Of a stretch of 64,000 nucleotides of DNA, positions 1 to 36,334 are shown one piece after another (position 1 is the stretch's first letter; each line of letters begins with the position of its first letter). The stretch lies in the NCBI GenBank assembly GCA_902790905.1, contig CADATO010000007.1:3734-67733 (forward strand), read 5' to 3'. A program made the position numbers and the translations under genes. The notes under the pieces were generated by a model. The model had not been told where the DNA came from and ran no database searches. It saw only the letters and a list, made by a program, of their open reading frames with translations. The DNA comes from an uncultured Eubacteriales bacterium. GTDB taxonomy: Bacteria > Bacillota > Clostridia > Peptostreptococcales > Anaerovoracaceae.

Positions 1-14
1 CAGAGATTACAAGG

Positions 15-923: not shown

Positions 924-950
924 AAACCCCGAGACCGTTGAGATCTCGGG
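921..950 (-). terminator. Hairpin with a T-run on the minus strand, downstream of tRNA-Ser
   Basis: cccgaga (928-934) pairs with tctcggg (944-950). On the minus strand the stem is followed by TTTTTA. Confidence 0.55.
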
Positions 951-957
951 AAAATGA

Positions 958-1045
958 TGGCGGAGGGCATGGGACTCGAACCCACGAGGCTGTTACACCC
1001 TACTCGCTTTCCAGGCGAGCTCCTTAGCCACTCGGTCAACCCTCC
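958..1045 (-). tRNA. tRNA-Ser (anticodon GGA), class II with a long variable arm and encoded CCA
   Basis: The reverse complement reads GGAGGGT..CTCGC-CTGGAAA-GCGAG..GTGGGTTCGAGTCCCAT-GCCCTCC-G-CCA. It has a 7-bp acceptor stem, an anticodon loop CUGGAAA, a canonical T-loop and a long extra arm. Confidence 0.85.
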
Positions 1046-1291
1046 GTGCTAATTGCGTGTTACGCGATATGGATGCTCTTTTCAGAGCCGTATACTAATC
1101 TAACATATAGAGCAGGGATTTTCAAGGAAAATATTTATGGACACAATAAACAAAATCAAAAAATGTATCTTGTATACAAGGAGCGATTCTGCTATACTCA
1201 CTTTAGTTTTTATATCCATATGGATCTGATATGGAAATACGAAAGCGTAAATATCTCTCCTTAAATAAGTGATAATAGATAAAACCGTAAG

Positions 1292-1325
1292 AAAAAAGCC
1301 GGAGATCCATCCTCCGGCTTTTTTC
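1292..1325. terminator. Bidirectional intrinsic terminator downstream of nadE
   Basis: gccggag (1298-1304) pairs with ctccggc (1312-1318). The stem is flanked by an A-run upstream and a T-run downstream. Confidence 0.7.
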
Positions 1326-1329
1326 GTAT

Positions 1330-5582: not shown

Positions 5583-6194
5583 ATGAAACGAATCATTGCA
5601 GCAACCAGAAATGAAGGCAAAATCAGAGAAATGAACGCGATCACGGAAGAACTCGGGATCGCAATCATCTCGCGCGACGACGCGGGCGTACCGCCGGTTG
5701 AGATCGAAGAGACCGGCACAACGTTTGAAGAAAACTCCTACATCAAGGCGAAGGCCATCATGGAGATGACAGGGGAGCCTGCATTGGCAGATGACTCCGG
5801 GATTTGCTGCGACTATCTGGGCGGCGCACCCGGCGTGCAGTCGGCCCGCTGGTCCGGCGGCGACGATGAAGACAACAATGCCAAACTGGTCCGGCTGACA
5901 GAGCCTGTCCCGCCGGAAGAGCGCATCGCCCGGTATGTGTGCGTGATGACACTCGTTTATCCGGACGGGGAAACCCTCCGCGCACGCGGGGAGGTCGAAG
6001 GCATGATCATCACAGAGCCCCGCGGCGACGGGGGCTTCGGATACGATCCGTACTTTGTGCCGCGCGGGGAAGGCGTGGCGCCGGGGGAGACCCGCACCTT
6101 TGCGGAATTCCCGGCGGAAGAGAAGAATGCCATCAGCCACCGCGGCCGCGCGCTGCAGGAGATGGCCCGTCTGCTGCGAGAGCGCAGCAAGTAG
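5583..6194 (+). CDS. rdgB: Non-canonical purine NTP pyrophosphatase (RdgB/HAM1 family)
   Basis: MKRIIAATRNEGKIREM... FGYDPYF ... AEEKNAISHRGRAL. The in-frame upstream extension to 5442 overlaps the preceding gene and has no homology. Confidence 0.9.
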   Translation: MKRIIAATRNEGKIREMNAITEELGIAIISRDDAGVPPVEIEETGTTFEENSYIKAKAIMEMTGEPALADDSGICCDYLGGAPGVQSARWSGGDDEDNNAKLVRLTEPVPPEERIARYVCVMTLVYPDGETLRARGEVEGMIITEPRGDGGFGYDPYFVPRGEGVAPGETRTFAEFPAEEKNAISHRGRALQEMARLLRERSK

Positions 6195-6226
6195 AATACT
6201 GACGTAATACAGGGGAACATGTTAGT

Positions 6227-7048
6227 ATGAGCAGCCGTTTGTTTCGCATGATCACACTGGGGATCCGGCAGTTCCGCGATCCGTACTACCAGGGCTTCGC
6301 TGCGCAGATCGCTTTTTACTATCTGCTGTCGCTGGTCCCGATGGTCATGCTGTTGTCACAGCTTATGATGTCGATCTTTCAGACCACCATTGCCGATGCG
6401 GTGGGCTGGCTTTTGGATGCCATCGGCGGTGCGTATTCGGATGAAGTCAGAGATCTTCTGACCTACCGTTCCGCGGGTGCCCTGAACATCGTCTATGCGG
6501 TCATCGCACTCTGGGCGGCTTCCCGCGCACAGTTCGCGCTGACCCGTATCATGAACTTTACGCTGACAGAAGGCCGCTCTACCGGCAATGGCTATTGGCG
6601 TGAGCGATTCCGCTCCATGTTCACGATGACACTCATGCTGCTGGCGATCATCGTGGCAGTCCTTGTCCTGGTTTACGGCGGCAGGCTGATCGAGCTGTTC
6701 TTCAAAGATCAGCGGATATGGCTGTGGATCCGCTGGCCGGTCGCGTTCGGGCTGTTCTTCCTGATTCTGAGTTTCATCTACAAGATCCTCCCGACGGAGC
6801 GCATTCCGTACAAGCAGGTGATCCCCGGCAGCATCTTTGCCGCGGTCGGGCTGGTGCTCGTCACCTGGCTGTACTCGCTGTACCTAAACGGCATGGCGCA
6901 GTACGACATCGTCTACGGTGCGCTGGCCAATATCGTCGCGCTGATGTTCTGGTTCTACTTCATGGCCTGGGTGCTTTGTCTGGGCGTTCTGTTCAACAAA
7001 GTCCTGCAGGATACGAAGGGACATCAGGGTCACGTGATGTTCAGATAG
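6227..7048 (+). CDS. YihY/BrkB (ribonuclease BN-like) family membrane protein
   Basis: 273 aa and multi-TM. It starts with a family-typical RDPYYQGFAAQIAFYYLLSLVPMVMLL and ends with the LMFWFYFMAWVLCLG motif. Confidence 0.8.
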   Translation: MSSRLFRMITLGIRQFRDPYYQGFAAQIAFYYLLSLVPMVMLLSQLMMSIFQTTIADAVGWLLDAIGGAYSDEVRDLLTYRSAGALNIVYAVIALWAASRAQFALTRIMNFTLTEGRSTGNGYWRERFRSMFTMTLMLLAIIVAVLVLVYGGRLIELFFKDQRIWLWIRWPVAFGLFFLILSFIYKILPTERIPYKQVIPGSIFAAVGLVLVTWLYSLYLNGMAQYDIVYGALANIVALMFWFYFMAWVLCLGVLFNKVLQDTKGHQGHVMFR

Positions 7049-21606: not shown

Positions 21607-21635
21607 TTGACACTGGTCTAAGGCGGTGATATATT
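21607..21635 (+). promoter_or_regulatory. SigA-type promoter with extended -10, driving riboswitch 1
   Basis: TTGACA (21607-21612), 17-nt spacer containing TGa, TATATT (21630-21635). Confidence 0.65.
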
Positions 21636-21654
21636 CGTTGCGCAAATCTTAATA

Positions 21655-21842
21655 CTTTGCAGTGCAGACGGTAACAGTCTGATAATAGGGAACCAGGTGC
21701 AAATCCTGGACGATCCGGTCACTGTGAATGGGGAGTGTCCCGAGAGATACCATTGGGCATGTACCAGCGCCAGCCGGCGCCGCGGCATGTTTGAGAAGGT
21801 TCGGGCTACACGATGATCCATGAGTCAGGAAACCTGCTGCAG
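21655..21842 (+). promoter_or_regulatory. Cobalamin (B12) riboswitch aptamer, copy 1
   Basis: Conserved core AATAGGGAACCAGGTGCAAATCCTGG...CCGGTCACTGTGAA...GGGA... and B12 box GAGTCAGGAAACCTGC (21822-21837). P1 is ctttgcag/ctgca. Called by eye and not checked with a covariance model. Confidence 0.85.
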
Positions 21843-21921
21843 CGTGAGATTGGAATTGCTTCCGGAGAAAGCGCGTCCAACGATACAAGACGTTCTTACG
21901 TTGTTATCATGTGTCAATGAG

Positions 21922-21955
21922 CCTGCTTTCCGCGCAATGAGAAAGCAGGTTTTTT
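21922..21955 (+). terminator. Riboswitch 1 expression-platform terminator
   Basis: cctgctttc (21922-21930) pairs with gaaagcagg (21941-21949), followed by TTTTTT. It lies 68 nt before the start codon. Confidence 0.75.
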
Positions 21956-22023: not shown

Positions 22024-25000
22024 ATGAAAAAAGGTATTAGGAGAGTCATAGTGCTCCTTCTGGCACTGTCGATGGTCTTCACCACGACGGGCCTGCCTGC
22101 CTTTGCGGATACATCTGCATCCGGAGGTGCAGTTGCGACCGTACAGGGCACGGAGGATGCCACGCTCGAAAGTGTGCTGGAAAGAATCGGCGCTCTTTCC
22201 AATGATCCGAGGAACTTTACTGCTGACGATCAGGAAAGTATTGAAGCACTGTTTGCTGACTACAACGCTCTAAGCGCGGAGGATCAGGCGACCGTCGACA
22301 ATACGTTCCAGCATCCATCCGGCGATGGTCAGTCGTACGGCCGCATCCTTGAAGCGGCCCTTTGGACAGTGCGTTCGTTCAATACGGATACGAGCACAAC
22401 GCTCGCGAACGGAACCTATACCACAACGACAGAAAGAGCTGTCAGCTCCGTTTCGGACAAAGGCAAGAGCGATTCGAGCCGTACGAGGAACTGGTGGGTC
22501 GAGAGCGTTGTCGTAGAGAATGGTCAGGCCAAGGCTTATATTTATGTAACGTCCGGTGCGGCAACGGCAAGCAAACTGACCAGTTATCCGAGCGTATGGA
22601 TCGGCGGCAAGAGCGTCGAGAGAGATGAGAATAACAACTACGAGATCCCGGTGGACCTGAATGGAAGAACGTATTTTGGCGGTGTCTCCAGCAGCATGCC
22701 CAGACCCATTATGTATGCGCTGGACACCACGATTGAAGAACCTGCTGCGGAGGAGGATGCGGATTACAGCGTGGTAGATGCTGCGATAGCTGCGATCCCG
22801 GCTGACCTGAGCATTTATACAGATGAGAGCGTACAGGCACTGAACGCAGCAGTCGATGCAGTCGTACGCGGCAAGAAGGCTTCTGAACAGGACGCTGTCG
22901 ATGCTATGGCGGCAGCAATCAATGCCGCGATTGCTGCGCTGGAGGAAAAGACTCCTGCGCCGTCAGATGAAACCGTCTACACAGGCGACGACATCGAATT
23001 CAGCCATACAGGCAAAGACTTTGAACTGGTTGCGTGCGATAAAGTGATCGTTTCTGACACCGGCGCTGTTGCGGAAATCAAGCTTCAGTTCCCGGATCAA
23101 ATCGGTATTGAGCGCATCGCGCAGACAACTAAGGAGCCGACTGATACATCGCATGATCTGCAGTTCAAAAGCGACAGCCAGAAAATCGCGACAGTAATGG
23201 TTCCTGTTACGCTTGGTGAAGAAACCTCGCTATACGCTCTGGACGACGAGTTTGGAGAATGGTGGAATACTAAAATCACGGTCAATGTCACTGCACAGCA
23301 GCCTGACACACCTGAGGTCACGGAGCTCGAGATCGAGAATGAACAGGCTATGTTCAAGGCTGTCAGCGCTTCTCTTGAGACATATTCGGACGGCAGCCGC
23401 GTTCTCGTGTTCGCGCTGTCCAGCACAGGTTATATCGGTCTTTACAAAGGAACATACCCCGAAGCCGTTCAGGATAAAGATGCGATCGTCGCTGCGCTTG
23501 AGGCAAACGAGAGCACAGATAAGACCATCGTTTATCAGAAGAATGCAGACGGCAAATACGAGTTCCGCATCCCGCTGGATGAGGGACAGACATACATCCC
23601 GCTGATCTCAGTGTCGGCGAGAGGTTTCCAGAACCGTGCGACACAGCCCATCGAAGAGAAAGGCTTCTACGCCCGTCAGATTGAATTGCGCAATGACGGG
23701 ACAAAAATGTGGCTGGGCGACTACAATGAGACGACCGAGTTCACGCTGTCCACAGAACTGGAAGATTTCAAAGCTGAGACAGCTGTTTCTACCACCATCA
23801 AGGGTGGCCCTGTAAATAACAACTACAGTGTTGTGCCTACGATCACAATGCTGGATGGGACTTATGACTCTGTCACCTACCCGTCTGTTGTGAACAACGC
23901 AGTCAGCACTAAGACTGCAGCTCTCGAAGACGGCAAGTTCGTCATCAATATGGAGAATGCGCCGAACAAGAAGGCGTTCCAAGATAAGACGCCGCTGACA
24001 TTCACGTTCCATGTCGCAGAAGATGCTCCTTATGCGGAGGCGGGTACTGACGTAGAGCGTACGGTGACGTTCGACCAGATTGCCAAGACCGTTACCGTTG
24101 AAGGCACCGCACTGACGCCGAAGACAGAGCCTGTACTGGCGGACGGTACGTACACCGCCACAAAGGTGTCCACAGATGTCACCACAGATGCCAGTGGTAT
24201 GATCATGGTCACAAAGGCGACCGTTGTCATCAAAGACGGTCAGGCGACCGCCATCGTCACCATGAAGGGCACAGGCGCTGACAGACTTTATATCTCGGAT
24301 ACGGCGACAAAAGACACGATTATTAGTGAGGCGGTAGCGGAAGAGGCAAAAGAGATCGATGGTCAGTTCTCCAACCTCATCGGCTGTTACAATATGGAAG
24401 GTGAGAGCGCTTACAGCTTCTGGCCCATCCCGATCGAGCTTGGTACACCTAAAATCTACGCAGCCCGTTCCGCAAGCCATTTCAACAAGTGGGATACACC
24501 CCGCGAAAAATATTTCTACGTGCATGACTTCCAGATCGACGCAGCTGACCTTGTGCGCGTCAGTGATTCCACAGACATCATGTCGCCCGAAATCGACGCG
24601 GAGGTGCTCGTCAATCAGTTCTACGTGAACAATGGCATTTCCAGCAATCATGCAGGTGTCATCAAGGCAAAGAACGCAAATGTCACGGTGCCGTATTATG
24701 ATGGCGACACCAAGATTTCGAGCTTCAATTTCAAGCGTCCTGATGCGAGCGAGTATGTATCGGGCTGGTTCATCGACAACGATGGTCTGAACATGCTTAC
24801 AAGCAACAGCAAGAAGAAGGTCCGGTACCCCGGCTTTACGAGCGCGTTCTCGATGTCGAGTACAAAACGCGATGCCGGTGGGACATTCACAGCAACGCTG
24901 AAACTGTATCCTGCGGGCACGAATTACTATGAATACGATGCATCGGGTGTGCATTATTACACAGATTCCGATCATACCACTCCGGCAGAACCGGTTTTCG

Positions 25001-27957
25001 AGAAAACATTCACGGTTACAGTCGAAGAGAAGCCGCAGATCGATTTCAATGTGGGTGTTACCGTCACCGACCAGAAGAGCGGGGATGCGATTGCCGAACC
25101 GGTGATCACCGTGACCGATGAGTCGGATGACAGCGTTGTGACCCCCAATGAGGATGGCACATACAAGCTCAATGCATTGAAGAAGTATACCGTAGCTGCT
25201 TCTGCCGACGGATACGTCGCCCAGGGTGGTGCCGCGCAGGCAACCAAGACGGGATTCTGTCCCTCCAAGGAGGGTGAGATCGTATCTCTCAAGCTTCTGA
25301 AAGAAAGTGAAGCGTCCCACACCTTGACATTCAGTTTCACCGATCAGTTCGGTGAGGCGGTCGTCAATCCTGCCGTCAAGGTGACGAAATACGGCACAAC
25401 AGAAGAGGTGGCTGCGAACGCAGACGGTTCTTATACGCTGTGGGACAGCGAGGAGTACCGTTACGAGGCCACGGCTGAAGGTTATAAAACCGAGACAGGT
25501 TATCTCAGGCTGACGGAAGACAGTGCTGAAAGTGTCAAGATGAATAAGTACCTGTCCGAGTATAAGGTGACTTATACGATCAGGGATCAGGTCACAGACG
25601 AGGTGATTGAGAACCCCACACTTGTTCTCACGAACAATACGGATGGAACGACCATTCCGCAGAACGAGGACGGCAGCTTCACAGTGCCGGCTGACAAGAG
25701 CATTACGTGCGTTGCCAGCAAAGAAAATTACCAGAGTGAAGAATTCACGACGGTTACAGACTCTAGCATCAATTTCGAGCCTGAGATCAAGTACTCTTTC
25801 TCCCTGGAGCACAGTTACAAATGGCAGCTCGCTGACGAAATCAGTGCTGCGCAGGAGTATGCTGTCGGCATGGTCGAGTCTGACAAACCCGGCGAATGGG
25901 AGACGGGTTCCAAGGCTGCTCTGGAAGCGGCAATCAAAGACGCGCAGACCGCTCACGATAAAGCGGATGCGACGGAAGAGGATTTTGAAGAAGCGCTGAA
26001 GACCTTGAAAGCCGCTGAAAAGGCTGCTGCAAATGCGCAGCACTGGTTTGAGGCGAACGTGACTGTCCGTGTGAACAAGACACCGGGCAAAGAGGCGGAA
26101 CTCTACAAGTTCAAGGTGAGCGGCGAAGCCAGCAAGACCTATAAATATGCGGAACCGGCAAAAGTCGGAAAGCAGGTCTCCTTCATCGACGTGCTCGTTG
26201 CACTGCACGAGGAGATCTACGGAGATGCGTTCAAAGCAGAACCGACCAAGTACTTTGACTCTCAGAACGTTGGCTTCTACTATATTGGAAAGTTGTTCGA
26301 GCTGGGCAACTACTATCAGTTTGCTGTCAATGGCGAAAGCACTGGTAGTTACCAGAACTGCATCGTGAAGGATGGCGATGTGCTCGACGTATCGTTGCTG
26401 CAGAGGACCAATGACATCTTCCTGGCATTCGATCAACTCGAGGCGAAGACTAAGGCTGGCAGCGAATACACCACCACATTGCATGAAGGTGTGTCTGCCC
26501 AGAAACCTGCCGAGGGTTATACCGTTACGTATGCGGATGCGGAAGGACATGAGGTTTCCGGTGTCACCGACGCAGAGGGCAACCTTACCGTTACATTTGA
26601 GTATGATGGTGAATATACCATTAAGAGCGTTGTGACGGAAGACGCATCCAAAACGCTTGTGCAGCCGTATCAGAAAGTCACAGCCGATCAGGCTGCCGAC
26701 TACACAGCAGTAGACAAGGCGATTGCGTCGATCCCCGAGGATCTCAGCCCGTACACCGAAGTGACAGTGCAGGCTGTCAATGATGCGGTTGCAGCAGTTG
26801 ACCGCACGAAGACAGCATCCGATCAGGCTGACGTTGATGAAATGGCGAAGGCAATCGAAGACGCAGTCGCTGCATTGAAGGAACAGCCGGTTAAATTCTC
26901 TTATGATGGACAGGATGTAAGCTTCATCAATAAAGCCGGCTCCCAGTTTGGTATGCTGACTCCTCAGGATGGGACAACTGTCTCAATCAGTGGGAATAAT
27001 GTGGTCATCCATTATGTTCCGAAGAACAAGACGACATATGGAGGATTCAACTGGGGTTCTGTCGATATGCTCAAATATGGCGATGGGACTGTCAATCCGG
27101 GCTACGACGTGGCGTTCAATGATGATGGAACGATGGATCTGACTGTCAGCAAGGACTATTGCGGATATGCGCATCCTATCGCTGTGGTCAAGAGAAGTTT
27201 CTCAAAGAACACATGGACGAGTGCTGATCAGTATTATTTAGCGATTCCCGCACTTAAGTATTTTGATGCGGACTACAGTGCTGTCGAAGCAGCGAAGGCG
27301 AAGGTGCCGGCTGATCTGAGCATCTACACGGATGCAAGTGCACAGGCTGTTGTGAAGGCAGTAGCAGCTGTCATCGGAGGCAAGAAAGCCGATGAGCAGG
27401 CAGCAGTCGATGCAATGGCGCAGGCAATCGAAGACGCCGTTGCAGCTCTGAAAGTAAAAACAGGCTGGCAGCAGGAAGGCGGCAACTGGCATTACTATAG
27501 CAATGGCAGAATGCTGAAAAATGCCTGGGCTAAGGCAAATCAGGGCTGGTGCTGGATGGACGCCAATGGCAATTGGGTAAAGAATCAGTGGGTTCGTAAT
27601 AATGGAACCTGGTATTACATCAAGTCCAGCGGCTATATGGCAGCCAATGAATGGGTCAAGTCCGGCGGCAAGTGGTATTACACAAAAGCCAGTGGTGCTA
27701 TGGCAGCCAATGAATGGGTCAAGTCCGGCGGCAAGTGGTACTACGTAAAAACAAGCGGCGTTATGGCGGCGAATGAATGGGTTAAATCCGGCAGCCAGTG
27801 GTATTACATGAAAGCCAATGGCAGCATGGCAGCTGGTGAGTGGATCAAACCCGACGGAAACTGGTATTACTTGAAGTCAAACGGCGCCATGGCGACCGGA
27901 CGGCAGACAATCAACGGAAAGACGTATACATTTAACGCTTCCGGGAAACTGCTCTAA
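22024..27957 (+). CDS. Giant secreted multi-domain cell-surface protein (1977 aa) with C-terminal choline-type cell-wall-binding repeats. The proposed function, not demonstrated, is corrinoid capture.
   Basis: Signal peptide (..LPAFA/DT). Three FIVAR-like helical repeats, a ~265-aa module shared with the 860-aa protein, three PEGA/CarboxypepD_reg-like repeats, a DUF4430/transcobalamin-beta-like segment, and about 8 GW..G.WYY repeats at the C-terminus. It is the first gene after a B12 riboswitch. Confidence 0.9.
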   Translation: MKKGIRRVIVLLLALSMVFTTTGLPAFADTSASGGAVATVQGTEDATLESVLERIGALSNDPRNFTADDQESIEALFADYNALSAEDQATVDNTFQHPSGDGQSYGRILEAALWTVRSFNTDTSTTLANGTYTTTTERAVSSVSDKGKSDSSRTRNWWVESVVVENGQAKAYIYVTSGAATASKLTSYPSVWIGGKSVERDENNNYEIPVDLNGRTYFGGVSSSMPRPIMYALDTTIEEPAAEEDADYSVVDAAIAAIPADLSIYTDESVQALNAAVDAVVRGKKASEQDAVDAMAAAINAAIAALEEKTPAPSDETVYTGDDIEFSHTGKDFELVACDKVIVSDTGAVAEIKLQFPDQIGIERIAQTTKEPTDTSHDLQFKSDSQKIATVMVPVTLGEETSLYALDDEFGEWWNTKITVNVTAQQPDTPEVTELEIENEQAMFKAVSASLETYSDGSRVLVFALSSTGYIGLYKGTYPEAVQDKDAIVAALEANESTDKTIVYQKNADGKYEFRIPLDEGQTYIPLISVSARGFQNRATQPIEEKGFYARQIELRNDGTKMWLGDYNETTEFTLSTELEDFKAETAVSTTIKGGPVNNNYSVVPTITMLDGTYDSVTYPSVVNNAVSTKTAALEDGKFVINMENAPNKKAFQDKTPLTFTFHVAEDAPYAEAGTDVERTVTFDQIAKTVTVEGTALTPKTEPVLADGTYTATKVSTDVTTDASGMIMVTKATVVIKDGQATAIVTMKGTGADRLYISDTATKDTIISEAVAEEAKEIDGQFSNLIGCYNMEGESAYSFWPIPIELGTPKIYAARSASHFNKWDTPREKYFYVHDFQIDAADLVRVSDSTDIMSPEIDAEVLVNQFYVNNGISSNHAGVIKAKNANVTVPYYDGDTKISSFNFKRPDASEYVSGWFIDNDGLNMLTSNSKKKVRYPGFTSAFSMSSTKRDAGGTFTATLKLYPAGTNYYEYDASGVHYYTDSDHTTPAEPVFEKTFTVTVEEKPQIDFNVGVTVTDQKSGDAIAEPVITVTDESDDSVVTPNEDGTYKLNALKKYTVAASADGYVAQGGAAQATKTGFCPSKEGEIVSLKLLKESEASHTLTFSFTDQFGEAVVNPAVKVTKYGTTEEVAANADGSYTLWDSEEYRYEATAEGYKTETGYLRLTEDSAESVKMNKYLSEYKVTYTIRDQVTDEVIENPTLVLTNNTDGTTIPQNEDGSFTVPADKSITCVASKENYQSEEFTTVTDSSINFEPEIKYSFSLEHSYKWQLADEISAAQEYAVGMVESDKPGEWETGSKAALEAAIKDAQTAHDKADATEEDFEEALKTLKAAEKAAANAQHWFEANVTVRVNKTPGKEAELYKFKVSGEASKTYKYAEPAKVGKQVSFIDVLVALHEEIYGDAFKAEPTKYFDSQNVGFYYIGKLFELGNYYQFAVNGESTGSYQNCIVKDGDVLDVSLLQRTNDIFLAFDQLEAKTKAGSEYTTTLHEGVSAQKPAEGYTVTYADAEGHEVSGVTDAEGNLTVTFEYDGEYTIKSVVTEDASKTLVQPYQKVTADQAADYTAVDKAIASIPEDLSPYTEVTVQAVNDAVAAVDRTKTASDQADVDEMAKAIEDAVAALKEQPVKFSYDGQDVSFINKAGSQFGMLTPQDGTTVSISGNNVVIHYVPKNKTTYGGFNWGSVDMLKYGDGTVNPGYDVAFNDDGTMDLTVSKDYCGYAHPIAVVKRSFSKNTWTSADQYYLAIPALKYFDADYSAVEAAKAKVPADLSIYTDASAQAVVKAVAAVIGGKKADEQAAVDAMAQAIEDAVAALKVKTGWQQEGGNWHYYSNGRMLKNAWAKANQGWCWMDANGNWVKNQWVRNNGTWYYIKSSGYMAANEWVKSGGKWYYTKASGAMAANEWVKSGGKWYYVKTSGVMAANEWVKSGSQWYYMKANGSMAAGEWIKPDGNWYYLKSNGAMATGRQTINGKTYTFNASGKLL
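27463..27954 (+). repeat. About 8 tandem ~60-nt coding repeats encoding cell-wall-binding (CW_binding_1 / choline-binding-type) repeats
   Basis: Repeated peptide G(Y/A/V)MAANEWVKSGGKWYY(T/V)K.SG. Two units share a near-identical stretch gcagccaatgaatgggtcaagtccggcggcaagtggta. Confidence 0.85.
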
Positions 27958-28034: not shown

Positions 28035-28053
28035 TTTGGCGTATGACTAACTC

Positions 28054-28239
28054 CTTTGCAGTGCGGACGGTCTCCGTCCAGTAATAGGGAACCAGGTGCA
28101 AGTCCTGGACGATCCGGTCACTGTGAACAGGGAGTGCCCCTGAAAATACCATTGGACAAAGCTGCCGCTTTATGCGGCGGATTGTCTGAGAAGGTTCGGG
28201 GAGTGCTTTGATCTGTAAGTCAGGAAACCTGCTGCAAAG
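28054..28239 (+). promoter_or_regulatory. Cobalamin (B12) riboswitch aptamer, copy 2
   Basis: P1 is ctttgcag (28054-28061) pairing with ctgcaaag (28232-28239). Core AATAGGGAACCAGGTGCAAGTCCTGG..CCGGTCACTGTGAA. B12 box AAGTCAGGAAACCTGC. It is highly similar to copy 1. Confidence 0.85.
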
Positions 28240-28308
28240 AAGGATTGGAATCGCTTCCGCAGAAAGCAAGCCCAATGATACAATGCAAGTCATTGATTAA
28301 TGTGAGGG

Positions 28309-28366: not shown

Positions 28367-30949
28367 GTGAATAATCATTGTTACAAAAGAATTGCTGCTG
28401 TGTTCTTAGCCATCGCCATGGTCATGACACAGAGTCTTTTTGTGTTTGCTGATACGGATCCGGCTGCATCCGCACAGGAAGACAACACGCAGGTCACAGA
28501 ACCGGTCGTCGAGGAAACCGTTGCGGAAGAAGAGCCGGTTGTTCCCGAGACCGTGCCGGAGGAGACAGAAACACCTGCCGAAGAATCCGCAGAGCCCGCA
28601 GCTGAGGAAGAGACTTCTGCGACTGAAGTTGCCGAAGAAGCTGCGCCTGCAGCGGCGGAGGGGACCGTGGCAGCGGAAGAAAATACGGAATCCGGGAAGG
28701 CGGCTGAAGAGGCAGATCAACCAGCTGCGAAGAAAGCGGACGATACCAATAAAACGGATCTTGAGATCACGAACAAGACCGGGATGTTCAAAGCCGTCAG
28801 CGCGTATCTGATTACGGAGAACGGACAGGAGTACCTGGTGATGGCATTGTCCAGCACCGGCTACCATGAATTGTGCAAGGGCACATACGAACAGGCCGTC
28901 GCTGGCGGTGACGGAAGCAAGGACAAAGGAAATACCTGGGTTCATGGTGAAACGAATAAGGATGGAAAGCTGGAGTTCAAAATCCCGCTCAGTGCGGGCG
29001 AGTCATATGTCCCCTGCGTGGCAGTATCAGCTACATACTATACAAACTATTTGAATGGATGGAACAGCCTGGAAAGAGCTTTCTATCCGAGACAGTTCAC
29101 GATCGACAGAGCGGCGAAGACGCTGGTAACAGGCGATTACGATGAGACAGCCGCCTTTGCGGTCACATCAAACGTTGCAGACTTCAAAGCGGAGGCTGCT
29201 GCCTCGACACATATCGTCGGCGGTCCGAACTCCAACAACTACAATGTCGCACCGGTATTGACGATGCAGGACAACACCTATGATTATGTATTCTATCCGG
29301 CACTCGTCGGCGGTGAGATTGATGAGCTGGGCGGCGAAGCAGGGCTGGAGAATGGGCAGTTCGAGATCTCGCTGTTGAACGCCCCAACTTTGGAAGTGTT
29401 CAAAGATAAAACTCCGATCGAGATGATGTTCCATGTTGCGGCGAATGCGCCTTATGAAGAGGCGGGGGACAGTGTCCTGAGATACGTGACGATCGATAAG
29501 ATGGCAAAGACAATCACCATCACAGGTGACCCGCTGACACCGAAAAAGGAACAGACGGATCCTGCCGATCCATCCAAGCCGGACACCCCGTCCAAACCGG
29601 GCACCCCGTCCAAGCCGGATAAACCTGCAAAACCGGACAAACCTTCCGGCGGGGACAGCTCCCAGACGGATAAGAAGGAATACGCGGATAAGACCGATGG
29701 ACAGACATCGGCTGTCAATGCCAGCACGACACTGAAAGACGGCGAATACACACCGGACTCTTTCAGCTGGTCCGGCGGCACAAACAGAGTCAGCATCTCT
29801 TGTCCGAAGATCACTGTGAGAAACGGGCAGGCATATGCGACGATCGTATTTACCAGTTCGAGTTTCGACCAGCTCAGAGCGAACGGCAGCACGTATTATA
29901 AGCAGGGCGGCGGCAATTCAACATTTGTCATCCCCGTCAACCTCAACGCGAACAACACCATCATCGGCAGAACAACGGCCATGAGCCAGCCGCACTGGAT
30001 TGAGTACACGATCTACGTCGGCAAAGCGGAGTCCGCGGAAGATGCTGCCAAGGTGCAGGCAGCCAAAAAAGAAGCTGCAGAGGCCAAACTCAAGATGAGC
30101 GACACAGCCCCGACCATTATCGGCCTCAAGACCAAGGATGGGAAAGAGGCGAAGAGCGACACCTCGTATGCCAAGTATTTCAAGATCTTTGAATATGAGC
30201 AGGGGGTCAAATTAATCTCCATCGACATTTCGCAGGACACCGAGCTCCACAAGGAGTATACGGAGAATGCGGAAAAGGCGGTTGCGGACAGTGAGAAGGA
30301 AGAAACTGTCGAGTATGATGACGACGGTAATGTCATCACCAAGTCGCCCAACGAATATACAGAAGCACTGTACAAGAACAACATCGTCAATTACCTGCTT
30401 GTCCCGGAAGACTTCGAGGTGCCGGCAGGGCTTGATAAGGAATACATCATTGTAACAGTTCCGGCTGAGAAGACTTTCATGGCCTCCCCGGAAGCGATCA
30501 AGATGATGGAGGACCTGAAGTGTCTGGATGCGGTTTCGCTGCTCGGCATGGATGAAAAGGACGTCAAATCCGAAACGCTTGAAAAAGCACTGAAGGACGA
30601 TACTGTAAAACTTGCCGGTGACCTGGAAAAACCGGACTACCAGAAGGTTGTCAAGGATAAAACAGATCTGGTCATTCTGCCGGGCGATGTGCTGCCGGAA
30701 GAGATCAAGAAGGACGCCAAAGACAAGGATAAACTGACAGAAGAAGCCAAAGAGATGCAGAAAAACCTTGAAAAGCTGGAAAGCCGCTTCACGACTCTTG
30801 ACGCACCGGTCATTATCGACCGCTCCGCACAGGAGAAGGATGAACTGGCGCAGGCGGAATGGATCAAGGTGTATGGCGCACTCTACGGCTGCGAGGAGCA
30901 GGCGGATAAGATCTTTGACGAACTGGTGAAAAAGGCGGATAAGGAATGA
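28367..30949 (+). CDS. Secreted 860-aa multi-domain protein: acidic linker, the module shared with the giant protein, a P/K-rich spacer, a beta-sandwich-like module, and the N-lobe only of a BtuF/FecB-type binding protein. GTG start.
   Basis: Signal peptide (..SLFVFA/DT), E/A/P-rich region, shared module at 28757-29548, DPSKPDTPSKPGTPSKPDKPAKPDKP spacer. The C-terminal ~280 aa align with the first half of the downstream SBPs (APTIIGL.., LLVPEDFEVP, PDY, EWIKVYGALYGCEEQA). It is the first gene after riboswitch 2. Confidence 0.85.
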   Translation: MNNHCYKRIAAVFLAIAMVMTQSLFVFADTDPAASAQEDNTQVTEPVVEETVAEEEPVVPETVPEETETPAEESAEPAAEEETSATEVAEEAAPAAAEGTVAAEENTESGKAAEEADQPAAKKADDTNKTDLEITNKTGMFKAVSAYLITENGQEYLVMALSSTGYHELCKGTYEQAVAGGDGSKDKGNTWVHGETNKDGKLEFKIPLSAGESYVPCVAVSATYYTNYLNGWNSLERAFYPRQFTIDRAAKTLVTGDYDETAAFAVTSNVADFKAEAAASTHIVGGPNSNNYNVAPVLTMQDNTYDYVFYPALVGGEIDELGGEAGLENGQFEISLLNAPTLEVFKDKTPIEMMFHVAANAPYEEAGDSVLRYVTIDKMAKTITITGDPLTPKKEQTDPADPSKPDTPSKPGTPSKPDKPAKPDKPSGGDSSQTDKKEYADKTDGQTSAVNASTTLKDGEYTPDSFSWSGGTNRVSISCPKITVRNGQAYATIVFTSSSFDQLRANGSTYYKQGGGNSTFVIPVNLNANNTIIGRTTAMSQPHWIEYTIYVGKAESAEDAAKVQAAKKEAAEAKLKMSDTAPTIIGLKTKDGKEAKSDTSYAKYFKIFEYEQGVKLISIDISQDTELHKEYTENAEKAVADSEKEETVEYDDDGNVITKSPNEYTEALYKNNIVNYLLVPEDFEVPAGLDKEYIIVTVPAEKTFMASPEAIKMMEDLKCLDAVSLLGMDEKDVKSETLEKALKDDTVKLAGDLEKPDYQKVVKDKTDLVILPGDVLPEEIKKDAKDKDKLTEEAKEMQKNLEKLESRFTTLDAPVIIDRSAQEKDELAQAEWIKVYGALYGCEEQADKIFDELVKKADKE

Positions 30950-32154
30950 GTAGAACAAAAAGAATAATCGCAGCGCTGCTGGTGCTGTGCATGGTACTGT
31001 GTTTCGGCCTGACAGCATGCAGCAGCGATGGCACGGACTCCTCTGCAGCGGTTCCGGAAGGATCTGCCGCATCTGCGGATCCGACACAGACAGATATGAC
31101 TTCCGCACCGGAGATCGAAGGGCTGACCTTCGAGTCGGAGCTGGAACGGGAGTATGCGACCCAGTTCAATGTGTTCCGCTACGAAGGCGGCTACAAGTAC
31201 TTCCACATCGTGGACGGCGACGACTTCCTGCTGGTCCCGGAGGATGGAGACGTGCCGGAAGATCTGCCGGAGGATGTAACGGTCCTGCAGGCGCCGGTCG
31301 AGAACATTTATCTGGCGGCAACTGCACAGATGGCGCTTTTCGTCAGCATGGGCGGCGAAGATTCGCTGCGTATGACATCCCTTAAGCAGGATGGCTGGAC
31401 GTTTGACGAGCCGAAAAAACTGCTGGATGACGGCGCGCTTCTCTTTGCCGGCAAATACAGCGAACCCGACTACGAAATGTTGATCGACGAGAACTGCGAG
31501 CTGGCAATTGAGTCAACAATGATATATCATACTCCTGAGGTCAAGGAGATGATCGAAGAGCTGGGCATTCCGGTCCTGGTGGACCATTCCAGCTATGAAA
31601 GCAACCCGCTGGGCCGTATGGAATGGATCAAATTCTACGGGGAACTGATCGGCAAAGAAGAGGAAGCCAAGGCGTTCTACGATGAGCAGAAGGCCAAGGT
31701 GGAAGCACTGGAAGACTTTGAGAATACCGAAAAGACAGTCGCGTTTTTCTACATCTCCACAGACGGCAAGGCGATGGTCAGAAGAGGGGATGACTATATC
31801 CCGGCGATGATCGAGATGGCCGGTGCAAGATACATCTTTAAGGATGTGGATGACGGCTCCGGTAAGCAGACCATCCCGATGACCATGGAAGCTTTCTACG
31901 ACATTGCGAAGGATGCGGACTATATCGTATACAACGCTTCGATCGACAGCTCGGTCAAGACGCTGGACGATCTTCTGGCTAAGGATCCGGTCATCAAGGA
32001 GATGAAAGCGGTCAAAGAAGGGAACTGCTGGTCTTCCGGCGGTGCGATGTATCAGCGGACGGATATTGCCGGTGATATGATCCTGGACTTCCATACGCTG
32101 TTTACTTCGGATGATCCGGAATCCGAGCTGAATTACATCACAAAACTCAAATAG
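30946..32154 (+). CDS. ABC-transporter substrate-binding lipoprotein, Peripla_BP_2 (BtuF/FecB) type, copy 1
   Basis: Lipobox GLTAC, then APEIEGLTF.. and both lobes of a class III SBP (..EWIKFYGELIGKEEEA..). ATGA overlap with the preceding gene. Confidence 0.85.
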   Translation: MSRTKRIIAALLVLCMVLCFGLTACSSDGTDSSAAVPEGSAASADPTQTDMTSAPEIEGLTFESELEREYATQFNVFRYEGGYKYFHIVDGDDFLLVPEDGDVPEDLPEDVTVLQAPVENIYLAATAQMALFVSMGGEDSLRMTSLKQDGWTFDEPKKLLDDGALLFAGKYSEPDYEMLIDENCELAIESTMIYHTPEVKEMIEELGIPVLVDHSSYESNPLGRMEWIKFYGELIGKEEEAKAFYDEQKAKVEALEDFENTEKTVAFFYISTDGKAMVRRGDDYIPAMIEMAGARYIFKDVDDGSGKQTIPMTMEAFYDIAKDADYIVYNASIDSSVKTLDDLLAKDPVIKEMKAVKEGNCWSSGGAMYQRTDIAGDMILDFHTLFTSDDPESELNYITKLK

Positions 32155-32166
32155 TAAAGAAGTATT

Positions 32167-33240
32167 ATGAGTCAGGGAAAAGAAATGCAGAATACGGGTG
32201 CCGCGGGGAGTTTTCGTCAGGAAAACTTCCGGCGGCGCAGTCGCTATATAACGGTATTCGCAGTACTGGCAATCGCCTTCTGCGTGATTATCGTGATCAA
32301 CATCAATTCGGGGAATGTCAACATCCCCATTTCGCGGATCCTGGATATACTGTTCACCAGAGACGGAGATCCGAAAGAAGTCGATATCATCTGGACGATC
32401 CGGCTGCCCCGGATCCTGATGGCGGCCATGCTGGGCGGCGCTCTTAGCCTGTCCGGCTTTTTGCTGCAGACATTCTTTGAGAACCCGATCGCGGGTCCGT
32501 TCGTCCTCGGTATTTCGTCGGGCGCAAAGATGGTCGTCGCCTTCACGATGATCTACAGCATGAGCCTCGGCTACACGATGTCGTCCTACACGATGATCGG
32601 GGCAGCCTTCATCGGCTCGCTGATGTCCATCGGCTTCATATTGCTGGTGGCGCGGCGGATCAAGAATATGGCGGCACTGCTCGTCGCCGGCATCATGATC
32701 GGCTATATCTGTTCAGCTGTCACGGACTTCATCGTCACATTCGCGAGCGACAGCGACATCGTCAACCTGCACGGCTGGTCTCTTGGCAGCTTCTCCGGCA
32801 TGAGCTGGAGCAACGTGCATATCACGGTCGTCGTGGTCGGCATGACGCTGGTGCTGACGTTCCTGTGCTCCAAGCCCATCGGCGCGTACCAGCTGGGCGA
32901 AGCGTATGCGCAGAGCATCGGCGTCAACATTAAGTTCTTTAGAATCGCTCTGATCCTGCTTTCGAGCATCTTCTCGGCCACGGTCACAGCGTTCGCGGGC
33001 CCGATCTCCTTTGTCGGCATCGCGGTACCGTTCCTGATCAAAGGGGCGCTTGGCACCTCCAAGCCCATCGTCGTCATCCCGGCGACCTTTGTGGGCGGCG
33101 GCGTGTTCTGTATGTTCTGCGACCTGATTGCAAGACTGGCCTTTGCACCGCTGGAACTCAACATCAGCACCGTCACGTCGATCTTCGGCGCGCCGGTTGT
33201 GATTTACATGATGATCAACAGACGGAGGGGCATGAAATGA
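32167..33240 (+). CDS. ABC-transporter permease, FecCD/BtuC family
   Basis: 357 aa with about 9-10 TM segments. Family-typical IWTIRLPRILMAAMLGGALSLSG and GAPVVIYMM near the C-terminus. Confidence 0.88.
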   Translation: MSQGKEMQNTGAAGSFRQENFRRRSRYITVFAVLAIAFCVIIVININSGNVNIPISRILDILFTRDGDPKEVDIIWTIRLPRILMAAMLGGALSLSGFLLQTFFENPIAGPFVLGISSGAKMVVAFTMIYSMSLGYTMSSYTMIGAAFIGSLMSIGFILLVARRIKNMAALLVAGIMIGYICSAVTDFIVTFASDSDIVNLHGWSLGSFSGMSWSNVHITVVVVGMTLVLTFLCSKPIGAYQLGEAYAQSIGVNIKFFRIALILLSSIFSATVTAFAGPISFVGIAVPFLIKGALGTSKPIVVIPATFVGGGVFCMFCDLIARLAFAPLELNISTVTSIFGAPVVIYMMINRRRGMK

Positions 33241-34337
33241 GTGAGAAATATTTCGAGCTTTCCAACCTCTCTGTTGGATATAACAAGAAAACACTTATCC
33301 ACGACATCTGTCTGGATATCAAGAAGGGCGAGATCGTCACCCTGATCGGGCCGAACGGCGCCGGCAAGTCGACGATCTTAAAGAGTATCACGAGACAGCT
33401 CGAGATCATCGGCGGCAAGGTCCTGTTCGACAGCAAGGAGATCCGGTCGATTTCGTACAAGGATCTGTCCACCCGCATGGCGGTCGTGCTGACGGATCGC
33501 CTCAAGACAGAGCTGCTGACCTGCCACGACATCGTCGCCACAGGCCGCTATCCGTACACTGGGCGGCTGGGCATCCTCTCGCACGAGGATGAGGAAAAGG
33601 TCGATAATGCGCTGCGGGCGGTCAATGCGCTCGATCTGGGCAACCGCGACTTCAATGCGATTTCGGACGGGCAGAAACAGCGCGTCCTGCTGGCAAGAGC
33701 CATCTGTCAGGAACCGGAGATCATCATCCTCGATGAGCCGACCTCCTTCCTGGACATCCGCTACAAGCTGGAACTGCTGAGCATCCTCGGGCGCATGGCC
33801 AAGCAGAACTGCATCACCATCATCATGACGCTGCACGAGATCGATCTGGCGCAGAAGATTTCCGACAAGATCGTCTGCGTTTCCGGCGACCACGTCACAA
33901 GATACGGCTCGCCGCAGGAGGTCTTCCGGGAAGACATCATCCGGGATCTGTACAACATCGACAACGGTTTCTTCGACCCGATGTTCGGTTCGATCGAACT
34001 GATGAAACCGTCCGGGGAAACACCGGAAGTCTTCGTTATCAGCGCGGGCGGGACAGGCATTCCCGTGTTCCGCGAACTGCAGAAGACCAACACAGCATTT
34101 GCGGCAGGGATTCTCTACGAGAACGATATGGACTACCAGCTCGCCAGACTGCTGGCCTGCGAGGTGGTCACGGAAAAACCTTTCGAGGCGATCAGCGATG
34201 CCGCCTTCGACAGAGCGAAAGCACTGATCGACAGCTGCAGCCGTGTCATCAACGCGGGCCTTCACATCGGCACGCAGAACAGCCGCATGCAGGCGCTGCT
34301 GGACTACGCGAAGGAGACAGGCAAACTGGAGATGTAG
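33237..34337 (+). CDS. ABC-transporter ATP-binding protein (BtuD/FecE-like) with an extra ~110-aa C-terminal domain
   Basis: Walker A GPNGAGKST, signature SDGQKQR and Walker B IIILDEPTSFLD. An unassigned extension follows from about aa 258. ATGA overlap with the permease gene. Confidence 0.88.
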   Translation: MSEKYFELSNLSVGYNKKTLIHDICLDIKKGEIVTLIGPNGAGKSTILKSITRQLEIIGGKVLFDSKEIRSISYKDLSTRMAVVLTDRLKTELLTCHDIVATGRYPYTGRLGILSHEDEEKVDNALRAVNALDLGNRDFNAISDGQKQRVLLARAICQEPEIIILDEPTSFLDIRYKLELLSILGRMAKQNCITIIMTLHEIDLAQKISDKIVCVSGDHVTRYGSPQEVFREDIIRDLYNIDNGFFDPMFGSIELMKPSGETPEVFVISAGGTGIPVFRELQKTNTAFAAGILYENDMDYQLARLLACEVVTEKPFEAISDAAFDRAKALIDSCSRVINAGLHIGTQNSRMQALLDYAKETGKLEM

Positions 34338-34346
34338 GAGGGACCT

Positions 34347-35156
34347 ATGGCACAAGACAAAGCGATCCTGGTCGTCAGTTTCGGCACCAGCTACAAAGAG
34401 ACAAGAGAAAAAACCATCGGCGCCATCGAAAAAGCGATCGGCGCCGCCTATCCGGACTGGGAGGTGCGCCGCGCCTTCACGTCCGGTTTTATTATGAAAA
34501 AGATCCTGCGCGAGGAGGGGCTTAAGATCAGCAACGTCGAGGAATCGCTCCGCCAGATGGCCGAAGACGGCATTAAAGACGTGATTGTCCAGCCGACCCA
34601 TATGATGAACGGCGGCGAATACGACAAACTCATTGGACAGTGCCAGGCCGTGCAGGACCAGTTTGAAGGATTCCGTGTCGGCGCACCGCTGCTGACCGAC
34701 GCAGGGGACTTTGAACAACTTGCGGAAGCGATTACAAAAGCGACGGAAGCCTGCGATGACGGGCAGACGGCGATCTGTTTCATGGGGCACGGCACGAATG
34801 CGGAGTCCAATGCGGTCTATACGGAACTGCAGAACACCCTGCAACGAGCCGGGCACGACCACCATTACATCGGCACCGTAGAGGCCACGCCTTCGCTGGA
34901 GGATCTTCTGGCGGCTGTGAAAGCAGAGCCGATATACAAAAGGGTCGTCCTGCAGCCGCTGATGGTCGTCGCCGGCGATCATGCGATCAACGACATGGCG
35001 GGCGATGAAGAGGACAGCTGGAAGAGCTCTTTTGCGGCAGCCGGATATGATGTACACTGTATTCTGGAGGGTCTGGGGGAGAACCCGGACGTGCAGCAGA
35101 TGTATGTGCGGCATGTGGCCGATGCGATGAGACGGTTGGAAGAGGAATCGAAATGA
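34347..35156 (+). CDS. cbiK: Sirohydrochlorin cobaltochelatase (anaerobic pathway)
   Basis: 269 aa. KAILVVSFGTSY N-terminus, FMGHGT motif, no signal peptide. Confidence 0.85.
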   Translation: MAQDKAILVVSFGTSYKETREKTIGAIEKAIGAAYPDWEVRRAFTSGFIMKKILREEGLKISNVEESLRQMAEDGIKDVIVQPTHMMNGGEYDKLIGQCQAVQDQFEGFRVGAPLLTDAGDFEQLAEAITKATEACDDGQTAICFMGHGTNAESNAVYTELQNTLQRAGHDHHYIGTVEATPSLEDLLAAVKAEPIYKRVVLQPLMVVAGDHAINDMAGDEEDSWKSSFAAAGYDVHCILEGLGENPDVQQMYVRHVADAMRRLEEESK

Positions 35157-36334
35157 CAGAGCGCAGAACGACATCACGGAATGGATATCGGAACAGACGG
35201 ACGGTGTGGGCGGTCCTGCTCATGGTGCTGCTGTGCACCGCACTGCTCGCAGGGTGCGGGCAGAAGAACGCGGAGGCCGATGGCGGCGCACCGGAGATCG
35301 AAGGGCTGACATTTGACCACGAGATGGAACTCGCGTATGCGGACCAGTTTCATGTATACTATTATAATGACGATTATGAGGTCATCACCGTCGAGGGCGG
35401 CGAGGACTACATGCTGATTCCGGAAGGCGGGGAGATCCCGGCCGGGACGCCGGAAGAGATGGTTGTCATCGAAAAGCCGGTGGACAATATCTATCTGGCG
35501 GCATCCTCTGCGATGGCGCTGTTCAAGTCGATGGATGCGCTGGATACCATTGCCTTCTCCGGCACAAAGGCGGATGACTGGTATATCGAAGAGGCGGCGG
35601 AGGCCATGAACAGCGGCAAGATCGCCTTTGCCGGCAAGTACAGCTCTCCGGACTACGAGATGCTGCTCGATGAAGGGTGCGATCTGGCCATCGAGTCGAC
35701 CATGATCACCCACGCGCCGGAAGTCAAAGAAAAAATCGAAGAACTCGGTATCCCGGTCTTCGTGGATCACTCCAGCTACGAGAGCCACCCGCTCGGCAGG
35801 GTCGAGTGGATCCGGCTTTACGGTGTCCTGACCGACCACGAAGAGCAGGCGGATGCGTTCTTCAATGAGCAGGCGAAGATCATCGAAGAGATGGCGGACA
35901 TCGAAGACACCGGCAAGACAGTGGCGTTCTTCTTTGTGAACTCCAACGGGCAGGTCGTGGTGCGTGCTGGCGATGACTACATCCCGCACATGATCGACAT
36001 CGCGGGCGGTGAATACATCTTCCCGGATCTGGTCAACGAGGACAGCGAGATGGCTTCAATGAAGATTTCCATGGAGGAATTCTACGCCGGCGCGGTGGAT
36101 GCGGATTATCTTATCTACAACGCTTCGATCGAGAGCCCGCTCACGAGCCTCGACCAGCTCTACGACAAGTCGGATGCCTTCAGGGAATTCAAGGCCGTCA
36201 AGGAAGGCCACGTCTACACAACGGATAAATACCTGTATCAGGCGACGGACATCACCGGCGAACTCATCCGCGACATCCACACGATGCTGACGGAGGACGG
36301 CGGCGAGATGACGTTCCTGACCAAGGTCGAATAG
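35153..36334 (+). CDS. ABC-transporter substrate-binding lipoprotein, Peripla_BP_2 (BtuF/FecB) type, copy 2 (paralog of 30946-32154)
   Basis: Lipobox LLAGC, then APEIEGLTFDHEMELAYADQF.., collinear with copy 1 throughout. ATGA overlap with cbiK. Confidence 0.85.
   Translation: MTERRTTSRNGYRNRRTVWAVLLMVLLCTALLAGCGQKNAEADGGAPEIEGLTFDHEMELAYADQFHVYYYNDDYEVITVEGGEDYMLIPEGGEIPAGTPEEMVVIEKPVDNIYLAASSAMALFKSMDALDTIAFSGTKADDWYIEEAAEAMNSGKIAFAGKYSSPDYEMLLDEGCDLAIESTMITHAPEVKEKIEELGIPVFVDHSSYESHPLGRVEWIRLYGVLTDHEEQADAFFNEQAKIIEEMADIEDTGKTVAFFFVNSNGQVVVRAGDDYIPHMIDIAGGEYIFPDLVNEDSEMASMKISMEEFYAGAVDADYLIYNASIESPLTSLDQLYDKSDAFREFKAVKEGHVYTTDKYLYQATDITGELIRDIHTMLTEDGGEMTFLTKVE

Follow-up and report, generated by a model that had tools for sequence, protein, structure and literature searches.

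The stretch analysed here, called the window throughout, comprises 64,000 nucleotides of contig CADATO010000007.1 (positions 3,734 to 67,733; assembly GCA_902790905.1) from an uncultured Eubacteriales bacterium of the family Anaerovoracaceae. It holds a giant gene whose product has a signal peptide at the N-terminus and choline-binding repeats at the C-terminus; from these domains we infer a secreted, wall-bound mosaic protein. The gene is preceded by a cobalamin riboswitch, with a terminator-like hairpin (21922-21955) between aptamer and start codon, and followed by an operon that is headed by a second cobalamin riboswitch and encodes BtuF-like lipoproteins and a putative importer. One segment of the giant protein, 26053-26403(+), corresponding to residues 1344-1460 of the 1977-residue open reading frame (ORF) 22024-27957(+), had been likened in a preliminary description to DUF4430 and to the transcobalamin β-domain; the peptide quoted there is letter-for-letter identical to our translation. 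From its predicted fold and its remote homology, we are highly confident that the segment is a divergent, unannotated member of the transcobalamin-like β-grasp (SLBB) clade, homologous to DUF4430 yet outside the model of that family. That it binds a corrinoid is, in our view, probable.

An AlphaFold2 model calculated on an alignment of 55 family domains (A1) had a mean predicted local distance difference test score (pLDDT) of 94.0 and a predicted TM score (pTM) of 0.89. DSSP assigned strands at 4-12 and 20-27, the main helix at 48-60, two short helices at 62-71, a hairpin at 72-76/80-85 and strands at 92-96 and 114-119. The model thereby contains the β-grasp core, i.e., a mixed sheet with one helix across it, as well as the β-hairpin insert after the helix (72-76, 80-85), whose turn glycine G78 is 87% conserved; both are features of the transcobalamin-like SLBB clade (PMC1796856). 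When the model was compared with the PDB by Foldseek, ranks 1-15 were occupied by transcobalamin chains, isolated β-domains and 3u7z, the DUF4430 protein of R. gnavus, with a probability of 1.00 and E 7e-4 to 6e-3. Among these entries, 5no0 reached a TM of 0.65 (target-length normalised), and 5np4 contains bound cyanocobalamin. Generic β-grasps (SAMP1, Urm1, ThiS, ubiquitin-like) came after them at E>0.02. The nearest folds of the modelled domain hence belong specifically to the ligand-binding transcobalamin clade and not to generic β-grasps, and the recognition of a transcobalamin β-domain fold in the preliminary description was correct.

Homology to DUF4430 became visible on the level of profiles. 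We built a canonical DUF4430 profile (A2) from PF14478-positive loci of related genomes and aligned it with A1. In hhalign, the two profiles matched over 67 columns with 96.2% probability and E 2.5e-9 (local run, 95.4%, E 1.8e-8). The aligned columns span from the helix start to the VNG...DGD end, where 'FAVNG...VKDGDVLDV' was placed on the canonical 'VNG...lkDGD.I.W'. The DUF4430-type layout that had been read from the letters, with a strand start, a central helix and a VNG...DGD end, is thus found both in the model and in the profile alignment. By comparison, 100 column-shuffled canonical alignments gave at most 0.9% probability (E 0.064), and a reversed alignment gave E 0.024. The canonical profile itself matched haptocorrin (4kki) at E 0.002, and the transcobalamin β-domain and intrinsic factor at E ~0.6-0.7.

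The window carries a single copy of the domain, as seen in its six-frame translation, and a locus search with the single protein returned two loci. Searched in full with phmmer, a set of 1.84 billion representative proteins yielded 53 homologues at E<=1e-3, four of them at E<1e-50 and the best at 1.9e-65. Iterated searches with hidden Markov models (HMMs) over these homologues describe a domain of ~120 residues, present once or as a tandem of up to five in proteins whose length ranges from 118 to >2900 residues. The family forms a tight cluster, with member-to-profile E-values of 1e-25 to 1e-44 for the family HMM. In A1 and window numbering, D1389 is invariant, and V1385, H1395, G1400, F1403, Y1410, N1436 and D1452 are near-invariant. 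The family consensus reads ..VT.LDVLVA.H...YG..F...P..YL.....G.I.K.FG.....GF.VN...P.......V.DGD....F.Y.D.

In the transcobalamin-like clade, a conserved hydrophobic residue of the hairpin stacks on the cobalamin base (PMC1796856). Candidates for such a residue in the present family are the conserved hydrophobic or aromatic positions in and around the hairpin (Y1410, 95%; position 72, L or F; I1421; F1425, 85%). The SLBB superfamily furthermore has a pair of strongly conserved glycines, the first of which follows strand 2 while the second lies in the turn that leads into strand 3 (PMC1796856). Family glycines that may correspond to them are found at positions 35 (84% G; K in the window copy), 87 (65%; E) and 93 (56%; Q), and the window copy deviates at all three.

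The domain rarely stands alone. Of the 67 homologue domain copies taken, 66 have 95 or more residues behind them, and the alignment of these stretches (A3) shows the motifs D.YLYF...TD..G......G.Y, with G180 and G190 being invariant and D125 and Y192 nearly so. An AlphaFold2 model of residues 1340-1559 (pLDDT 95.8, pTM 0.90) places strands at 126-216, and Foldseek matched this part to immunoglobulin (Ig)-like domains; in Pfam it gave sub-threshold matches to MucBP, BIg21, Big_1 and CarboxypepD_reg. The confident joint model suggests a fixed mutual orientation of the β-grasp and the Ig-like domain, and we predict that both form one cassette of ~215 residues (26050-26691). The same two-domain arrangement was absent from the PDB entries matched in the fold search, which were separate Ig-like or transcobalamin-β matches instead.

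The domain was found in 79 of 401 species genomes (~20%) and in 37 of 121 genera of the window's taxonomic family. It is also present in a class-wide sample, where 24 of 399 genomes contain it, 20 of these from 12 other families. For the survey of regulation, one genome per genus was taken and scanned for the cobalamin riboswitch RF00174, and an ORF was counted as linked if a riboswitch on its own strand preceded it by <=5.5 kb. The window's family contributed 44 domain-bearing ORFs, of which 30 were linked, 26 of these to matches at or above the gathering score, in 26 of 37 genera and at a median riboswitch-to-domain distance of 2.1 kb. Random placement predicts 0.26 linked ORFs (Poisson P ~1e-42). 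The 12 other families gave 18 ORFs, 12 of them linked (13 if the limit is set to 6.5 kb), and in many of these genomes the domain starts 200-350 bp past the aptamer as the first module. Taken together, linkage was found for 42 of 62 ORFs from 54 genomes and at least 13 families, with ~0.3 expected by chance. The domain is thus tied to B12 riboswitches roughly a hundred times above chance.

The closest public homologue (L040, 75% identity) lies on a contig of a metagenome-assembled genome that is labelled Eggerthellaceae (Actinomycetota), which points to horizontal transfer or mis-binning. There, the domain (6001-6366) follows an adenosylcobalamin (AdoCbl)-type riboswitch, RF01482 (2141-2290), and the survey based on RF00174 alone hence undercounts linkage. 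Some riboswitch-led proteins are as small as 273-470 residues and are made up of the cassette and basic fn3 repeats behind a signal peptide or lipobox. Regulation therefore tracks the cassette itself and not other modules.

Fold, remote homology and the riboswitch association of the family together make it probable that the cassette binds a corrinoid. The preliminary description would have counted the segment, if rightly recognised, as direct domain-level support for B12 binding of the riboswitch-regulated protein; support it is, but of an indirect kind, and 'direct' was an overstatement. In transcobalamin, an α/α toroid supplies half of the B12 site. Nevertheless, a β-type domain without a toroid partner is a plausible binder, because the isolated transcobalamin β-domain binds cobalamin alone and releases it only upon extensive washing (PMC5599065).

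A number of results weigh against this assignment. To our knowledge, B12 binding has not been demonstrated experimentally for any bacterial DUF4430 protein. The structural similarity to the transcobalamin clade is moderate (TM 0.49-0.65, root-mean-square deviation 3.6-5.3 Å, 12-17% identity), and the whole 1977-residue protein gave no toroid-type Pfam match. Searched against the PDB by sequence, the family profile found no transcobalamin, and both segment and profile returned chance-level matches only (a GTP-binding protein, eL31); the transcobalamin link is invisible to a plain sequence-to-PDB search. In hmmscan, PF14478 did not match the 117-residue segment, a 126-residue version, a 267-residue stretch or the whole protein even at E<=10. 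Ten short homologues likewise gave no PF14478 match in a Pfam scan, which found sub-threshold Ig-like matches C-terminal of the domain, and a PF14478 search of the whole genome identified copies on the contigs C17 (66.1 bits) and C6 (15.5 bits), the segment not being among them. The tryptophan of the canonical 'SGW.Y.VNG' is absent from the family, which contains a helical insert, HxxxYGxxF. Finally, 19 of the 62 ORFs have no RF00174 nearby, among them at least three within 1 kb of a contig start and eight in genomes without any RF00174 match.

At the Pfam gathering cut-off of 23.8 bits, the segment is not a DUF4430 member, so that of the DUF4430 relation claimed earlier the remote homology stood and the membership by the Pfam model did not. 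An NCBIfam scan found nothing relevant for the segment, larger stretches or the whole protein either. We hence take the domain as a probable sister family that has neither a Pfam nor an NCBIfam model. One could object that Pfam simply overlooks what is an ordinary DUF4430 domain with nothing distinct about it, which is a question of classification. The high hhalign probability would fit, and PF14478 is the sole Pfam family that more than one of the 55 individually scanned members matched (6 of 55, best E 6.1e-6). Moreover, intermediate forms seem to exist, as both models weakly match a divergent copy elsewhere in this genome, on contig C6 (family HMM E 8.5e-6, PF14478 E 0.04), and the form at one locus of a relative (L032) looks intermediate. 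However, the family clusters tightly in its own HMM, with 49 of 55 members unseen by PF14478, and it has a private near-invariant motif, LD...H...YG..F...P..Y, that canonical domains lack, whereas their invariant tryptophan is missing here. The Ig-like partner accompanies nearly every copy. In addition, canonical DUF4430 and the present domain occur side by side in one protein (G026, G025 and L037), as is the case for diverged paralogous families. We therefore consider an ordinary DUF4430 domain unlikely.

Alternatively, the domain could be a structural, spacer or adhesive β-grasp without a small-molecule ligand, and the riboswitch link would then stem from other B12-binding parts such as NEAT-like modules, canonical DUF4430 domains or β-propellers. 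In the window protein, the segment is indeed one module of many, with helical linkers and Ig-like domains on its flanks. The same operon often also encodes propeller or canonical DUF4430 proteins, which could carry the binding, and the conserved D1389 at the helix start, H1395, G1400 and F1403 might be purely structural. Such a role is nonetheless quite unlikely, given that riboswitch-led proteins of 336-469 residues hold only a signal peptide, the cassette and fn3 repeats, that the domain follows the aptamer at 200-350 bp as first module in many genomes, and that its nearest folds are those of the ligand-binding transcobalamin clade and not of generic β-grasps. A different ligand, i.e., haem or another tetrapyrrole, cobalt or an incomplete corrinoid precursor, is very unlikely: in a preprint, haem was modelled into a bacterial transcobalamin-like β/α pair (Latilactobacillus sakei Lsa1839/1840) next to an energy-coupling factor (ECF) transporter (bioRxiv 10.1101/864751), 3U7Z was deposited as 'putative metal binding protein', the conserved H1395 could ligate a metal, and the genome encodes CbiK, CbiD and CbiG, so that precursor salvage is plausible, but the haem proposal is docking only, 42 of 62 ORFs are under cobalamin riboswitch control, with an AdoCbl riboswitch in a further case, and the neighbouring importers are of the BtuFCD or ECF/CbiQ type.

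If the cassette is a corrinoid binder, the following sequence of events can be envisaged. At low intracellular B12, the riboswitch would permit transcription of the giant gene, as the aptamer and terminator suggest. Once secreted, the protein would stay attached to the wall through its choline-binding repeats. The cassette might then bind a corrinoid from the medium by the post-helix β-hairpin and the C-terminal VNG...DGD strands, with the same face as the transcobalamin β-domain, which grips the nucleotide side of cobalamin. Finally, the products of the adjacent riboswitch operon, namely the BtuF-like lipoproteins and the BtuCD-type importer, could take over the ligand.

We may further speculate, and tentatively so, that in monoderm bacteria the cassette is self-sufficient as a corrinoid-binding module and works without an α/α toroid. 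The Ig-like domain or the HxxxYGxxF insert, with H1395 perhaps as a cobalt ligand, might provide the second half of the site. Selectivity for the lower ligand would come from the β-domain; as this domain reads the nucleotide side, different cassettes could select different lower ligands, and relatives have as many as five cassettes in tandem. Proteins on the wall would then serve as selective extracellular cobamide reservoirs of high capacity that feed BtuF-type lipoproteins.

Known surface binders for the extracellular capture of B12 and other cobamides (BtuG, BtuH, BtuJ) come from Bacteroides, and the present proteins would concern the same task in bacteria without an outer membrane. In Bacteroides, BtuG, BtuH and BtuJ1/J2 bind B12 at the surface, with BtuJ1 described as an extracellular reservoir (PMC8941943; bioRxiv 10.1101/2025.07.01.662609; PMC13616437). 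The logic of riboswitch-controlled surface capture of cobamides that feeds a dedicated importer would be the same. The folds, however, are unrelated, and a diderm envelope with the TonB-dependent BtuB contrasts with the monoderm, wall-bound protein and BtuF/BtuCD-type ATP-binding cassette (ABC) importer proposed here.

The C-terminal β-domains of transcobalamin, haptocorrin and intrinsic factor (2bb5, 5no0, 5np4, 4kki, 2pmv) share with the window domain the β-grasp, the post-helix hairpin and the VNG...DGD-type C-terminal strands. At 12-17% identity and TM 0.5-0.65, the window domain differs from them by an additional helical segment after the main helix, by the fused Ig-like domain and by the lack of an α/α toroid in the same protein. 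Whereas the animal carriers are soluble, it forms part of a giant protein that is probably anchored in a bacterial wall. With DUF4430 proteins (PF14478; Ruminococcus gnavus RUMGNA_00854, 3u7z), it has the fold, a remote homology and the riboswitch-linked habit in common; it differs in being below Pfam detection, in its own HxxxYGxxF motif, in the Ig-like partner of nearly every copy and in the missing invariant tryptophan.

The general idea of transcobalamin-like B12 binders in Gram-positive bacteria is already known as a prediction. In 2007, B12 binding was predicted for transcobalamin-like SLBB domains of signal-peptide-bearing, wall-anchored surface proteins of Gram-positive bacteria (PMC1796856), and the hairpin insert that defines this clade is present in the model of the window domain. 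That work described neither the riboswitch linkage nor this sub-family or its Ig-fused cassette. New in our analysis are the branch invisible to Pfam and NCBIfam, the Ig-like fusion as a confidently modelled two-domain unit, the spread over at least 13 families and the quantified riboswitch linkage. The ~215-residue cassette is a compact unit that bears on the 2007 prediction and would help to annotate many giant surface proteins now listed as 'hypothetical' in Clostridia of gut and rumen. Should binding hold true, it would also bear on cobamide competition in gut communities and on the proposed Gram-positive origin of animal B12 carriers.

The remaining features of the locus are collected in the table. 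A consensus scan limited to 8-nt loops passed over the hairpin at 21922-21955 with its 10-nt loop, which was found by reading the sequence directly. An antisense ORF of 980 residues, 23608-26550(-), overlaps the segment; we rejected it as a gene and regard it as a probable shadow frame, since it lacks a Pfam match and the plus frame is backed by strong homologues and a confidently modelled fold. In the downstream operon, an 860-residue secreted protein, a BtuF-like lipoprotein, a FecCD permease, an ABC ATPase, CbiK, a second binding protein, CbiD and CbiG are encoded. The genes at 30946-34337 are the likely downstream route for a captured corrinoid.

Features of the window around the giant gene (residues refer to its product).
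Feature	Window positions	Residues	Strand	Basis
Sigma-70-like promoter (TTGACA, 17 nt, TATATT, TG extension), directly before the aptamer	21607-21635		+	Consensus scan, 11/12 matches
Cobalamin riboswitch aptamer ahead of the giant gene	21643-21855		+	Rfam RF00174, 97.4 bits, E 4.6e-23, full-length
Terminator-like hairpin, CCTGCTTTC / GAAAGCAGG, 10-nt loop, then TTTTTT	21922-21955		+	Direct sequence reading
Giant host gene, 1977-residue ORF	22024-27957		+	ORF list and translation
Putative signal peptide (MKKGIRRVIVLLLALSMVFTTTGLPAFA/D)	22024-22107	1-28	+	Read from sequence
Transcobalamin-β-like β-grasp domain	26050-26412	1343-1463	+	HMM envelope
All-β Ig-like partner domain	26413-26691	~1464-1556	+	Model, conservation, Foldseek
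Choline-binding repeats	27412-27948	~1797-1975	+	Pfam Choline_bind_1/2/3, E 1e-15 to 9e-22
Second cobalamin riboswitch, head of the downstream operon	28042-28250		+	RF00174, 101.1 bits
BtuF-like binding lipoprotein	30946-32154		+	Pfam Peripla_BP_2, E 2.9e-35
FecCD-type permease	32167-33240		+	Pfam FecCD, E 4.6e-73
ABC ATPase	33237-34337		+	Pfam ABC_tran, E 1.5e-30
Second BtuF-like lipoprotein	35153-36334

Relatives show how the domain and canonical DUF4430 are embedded elsewhere. By our count, canonical PF14478 domains lie within ~6 kb downstream of a cobalamin riboswitch in at least 23 of the 43 genomes with PF14478 among the relatives sampled. Unlike most of these copies, the one on contig C17 of the window's own genome has no riboswitch among the matches listed. 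This canonical DUF4430 domain (66 bits) forms the C-terminal end of a 436-residue membrane-anchored protein (L001, 1486-2796, minus strand) and adjoins a gene for a secreted protein of more than 517 residues (2-1552, minus strand) that looks α/α-toroid-like by eye; the two genes resemble a classic split 'transcobalamin-like' pair.

At locus L032 (900-6875), a riboswitch is followed by a 273-residue lipoprotein with the intermediate-type domain, a 535-residue protein that combines a toroid (SQHop_cyclase_C-like) with PF14478, CbiQ and an ECF S component. Judging from this gene order, the locus appears to encode a complete transcobalamin-like system for capture, ECF importer included. At two further loci from two genera, L033 (1266-3053) and L035 (1190-2980), the riboswitch precedes a secreted 595-residue protein with a PQQ_2/BamB-type β-propeller and fn3, and then a small cassette protein. 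BtuG, the B12 binder of Bacteroides, is reportedly a β-propeller as well, and the propeller proteins may be an analogous partner. The small cassette proteins of L033-L036 end in very basic fn3-like repeats (K/R-rich, e.g., KISWKKVAGAKGYQVYRATSKNGTYKK) and not in choline-binding repeats or LPXTG; these ends may represent a different device for wall attachment.

The divergent copy on contig C6 resembles the situation in the window. Here, an RF00174 match (C6:24309-24499, 136 bits) is followed by a frame of 1525 residues that contains the domain (locus L002, G000:C6:24309-28054), and this frame appears to encode a second riboswitch-led giant protein in the same genome.

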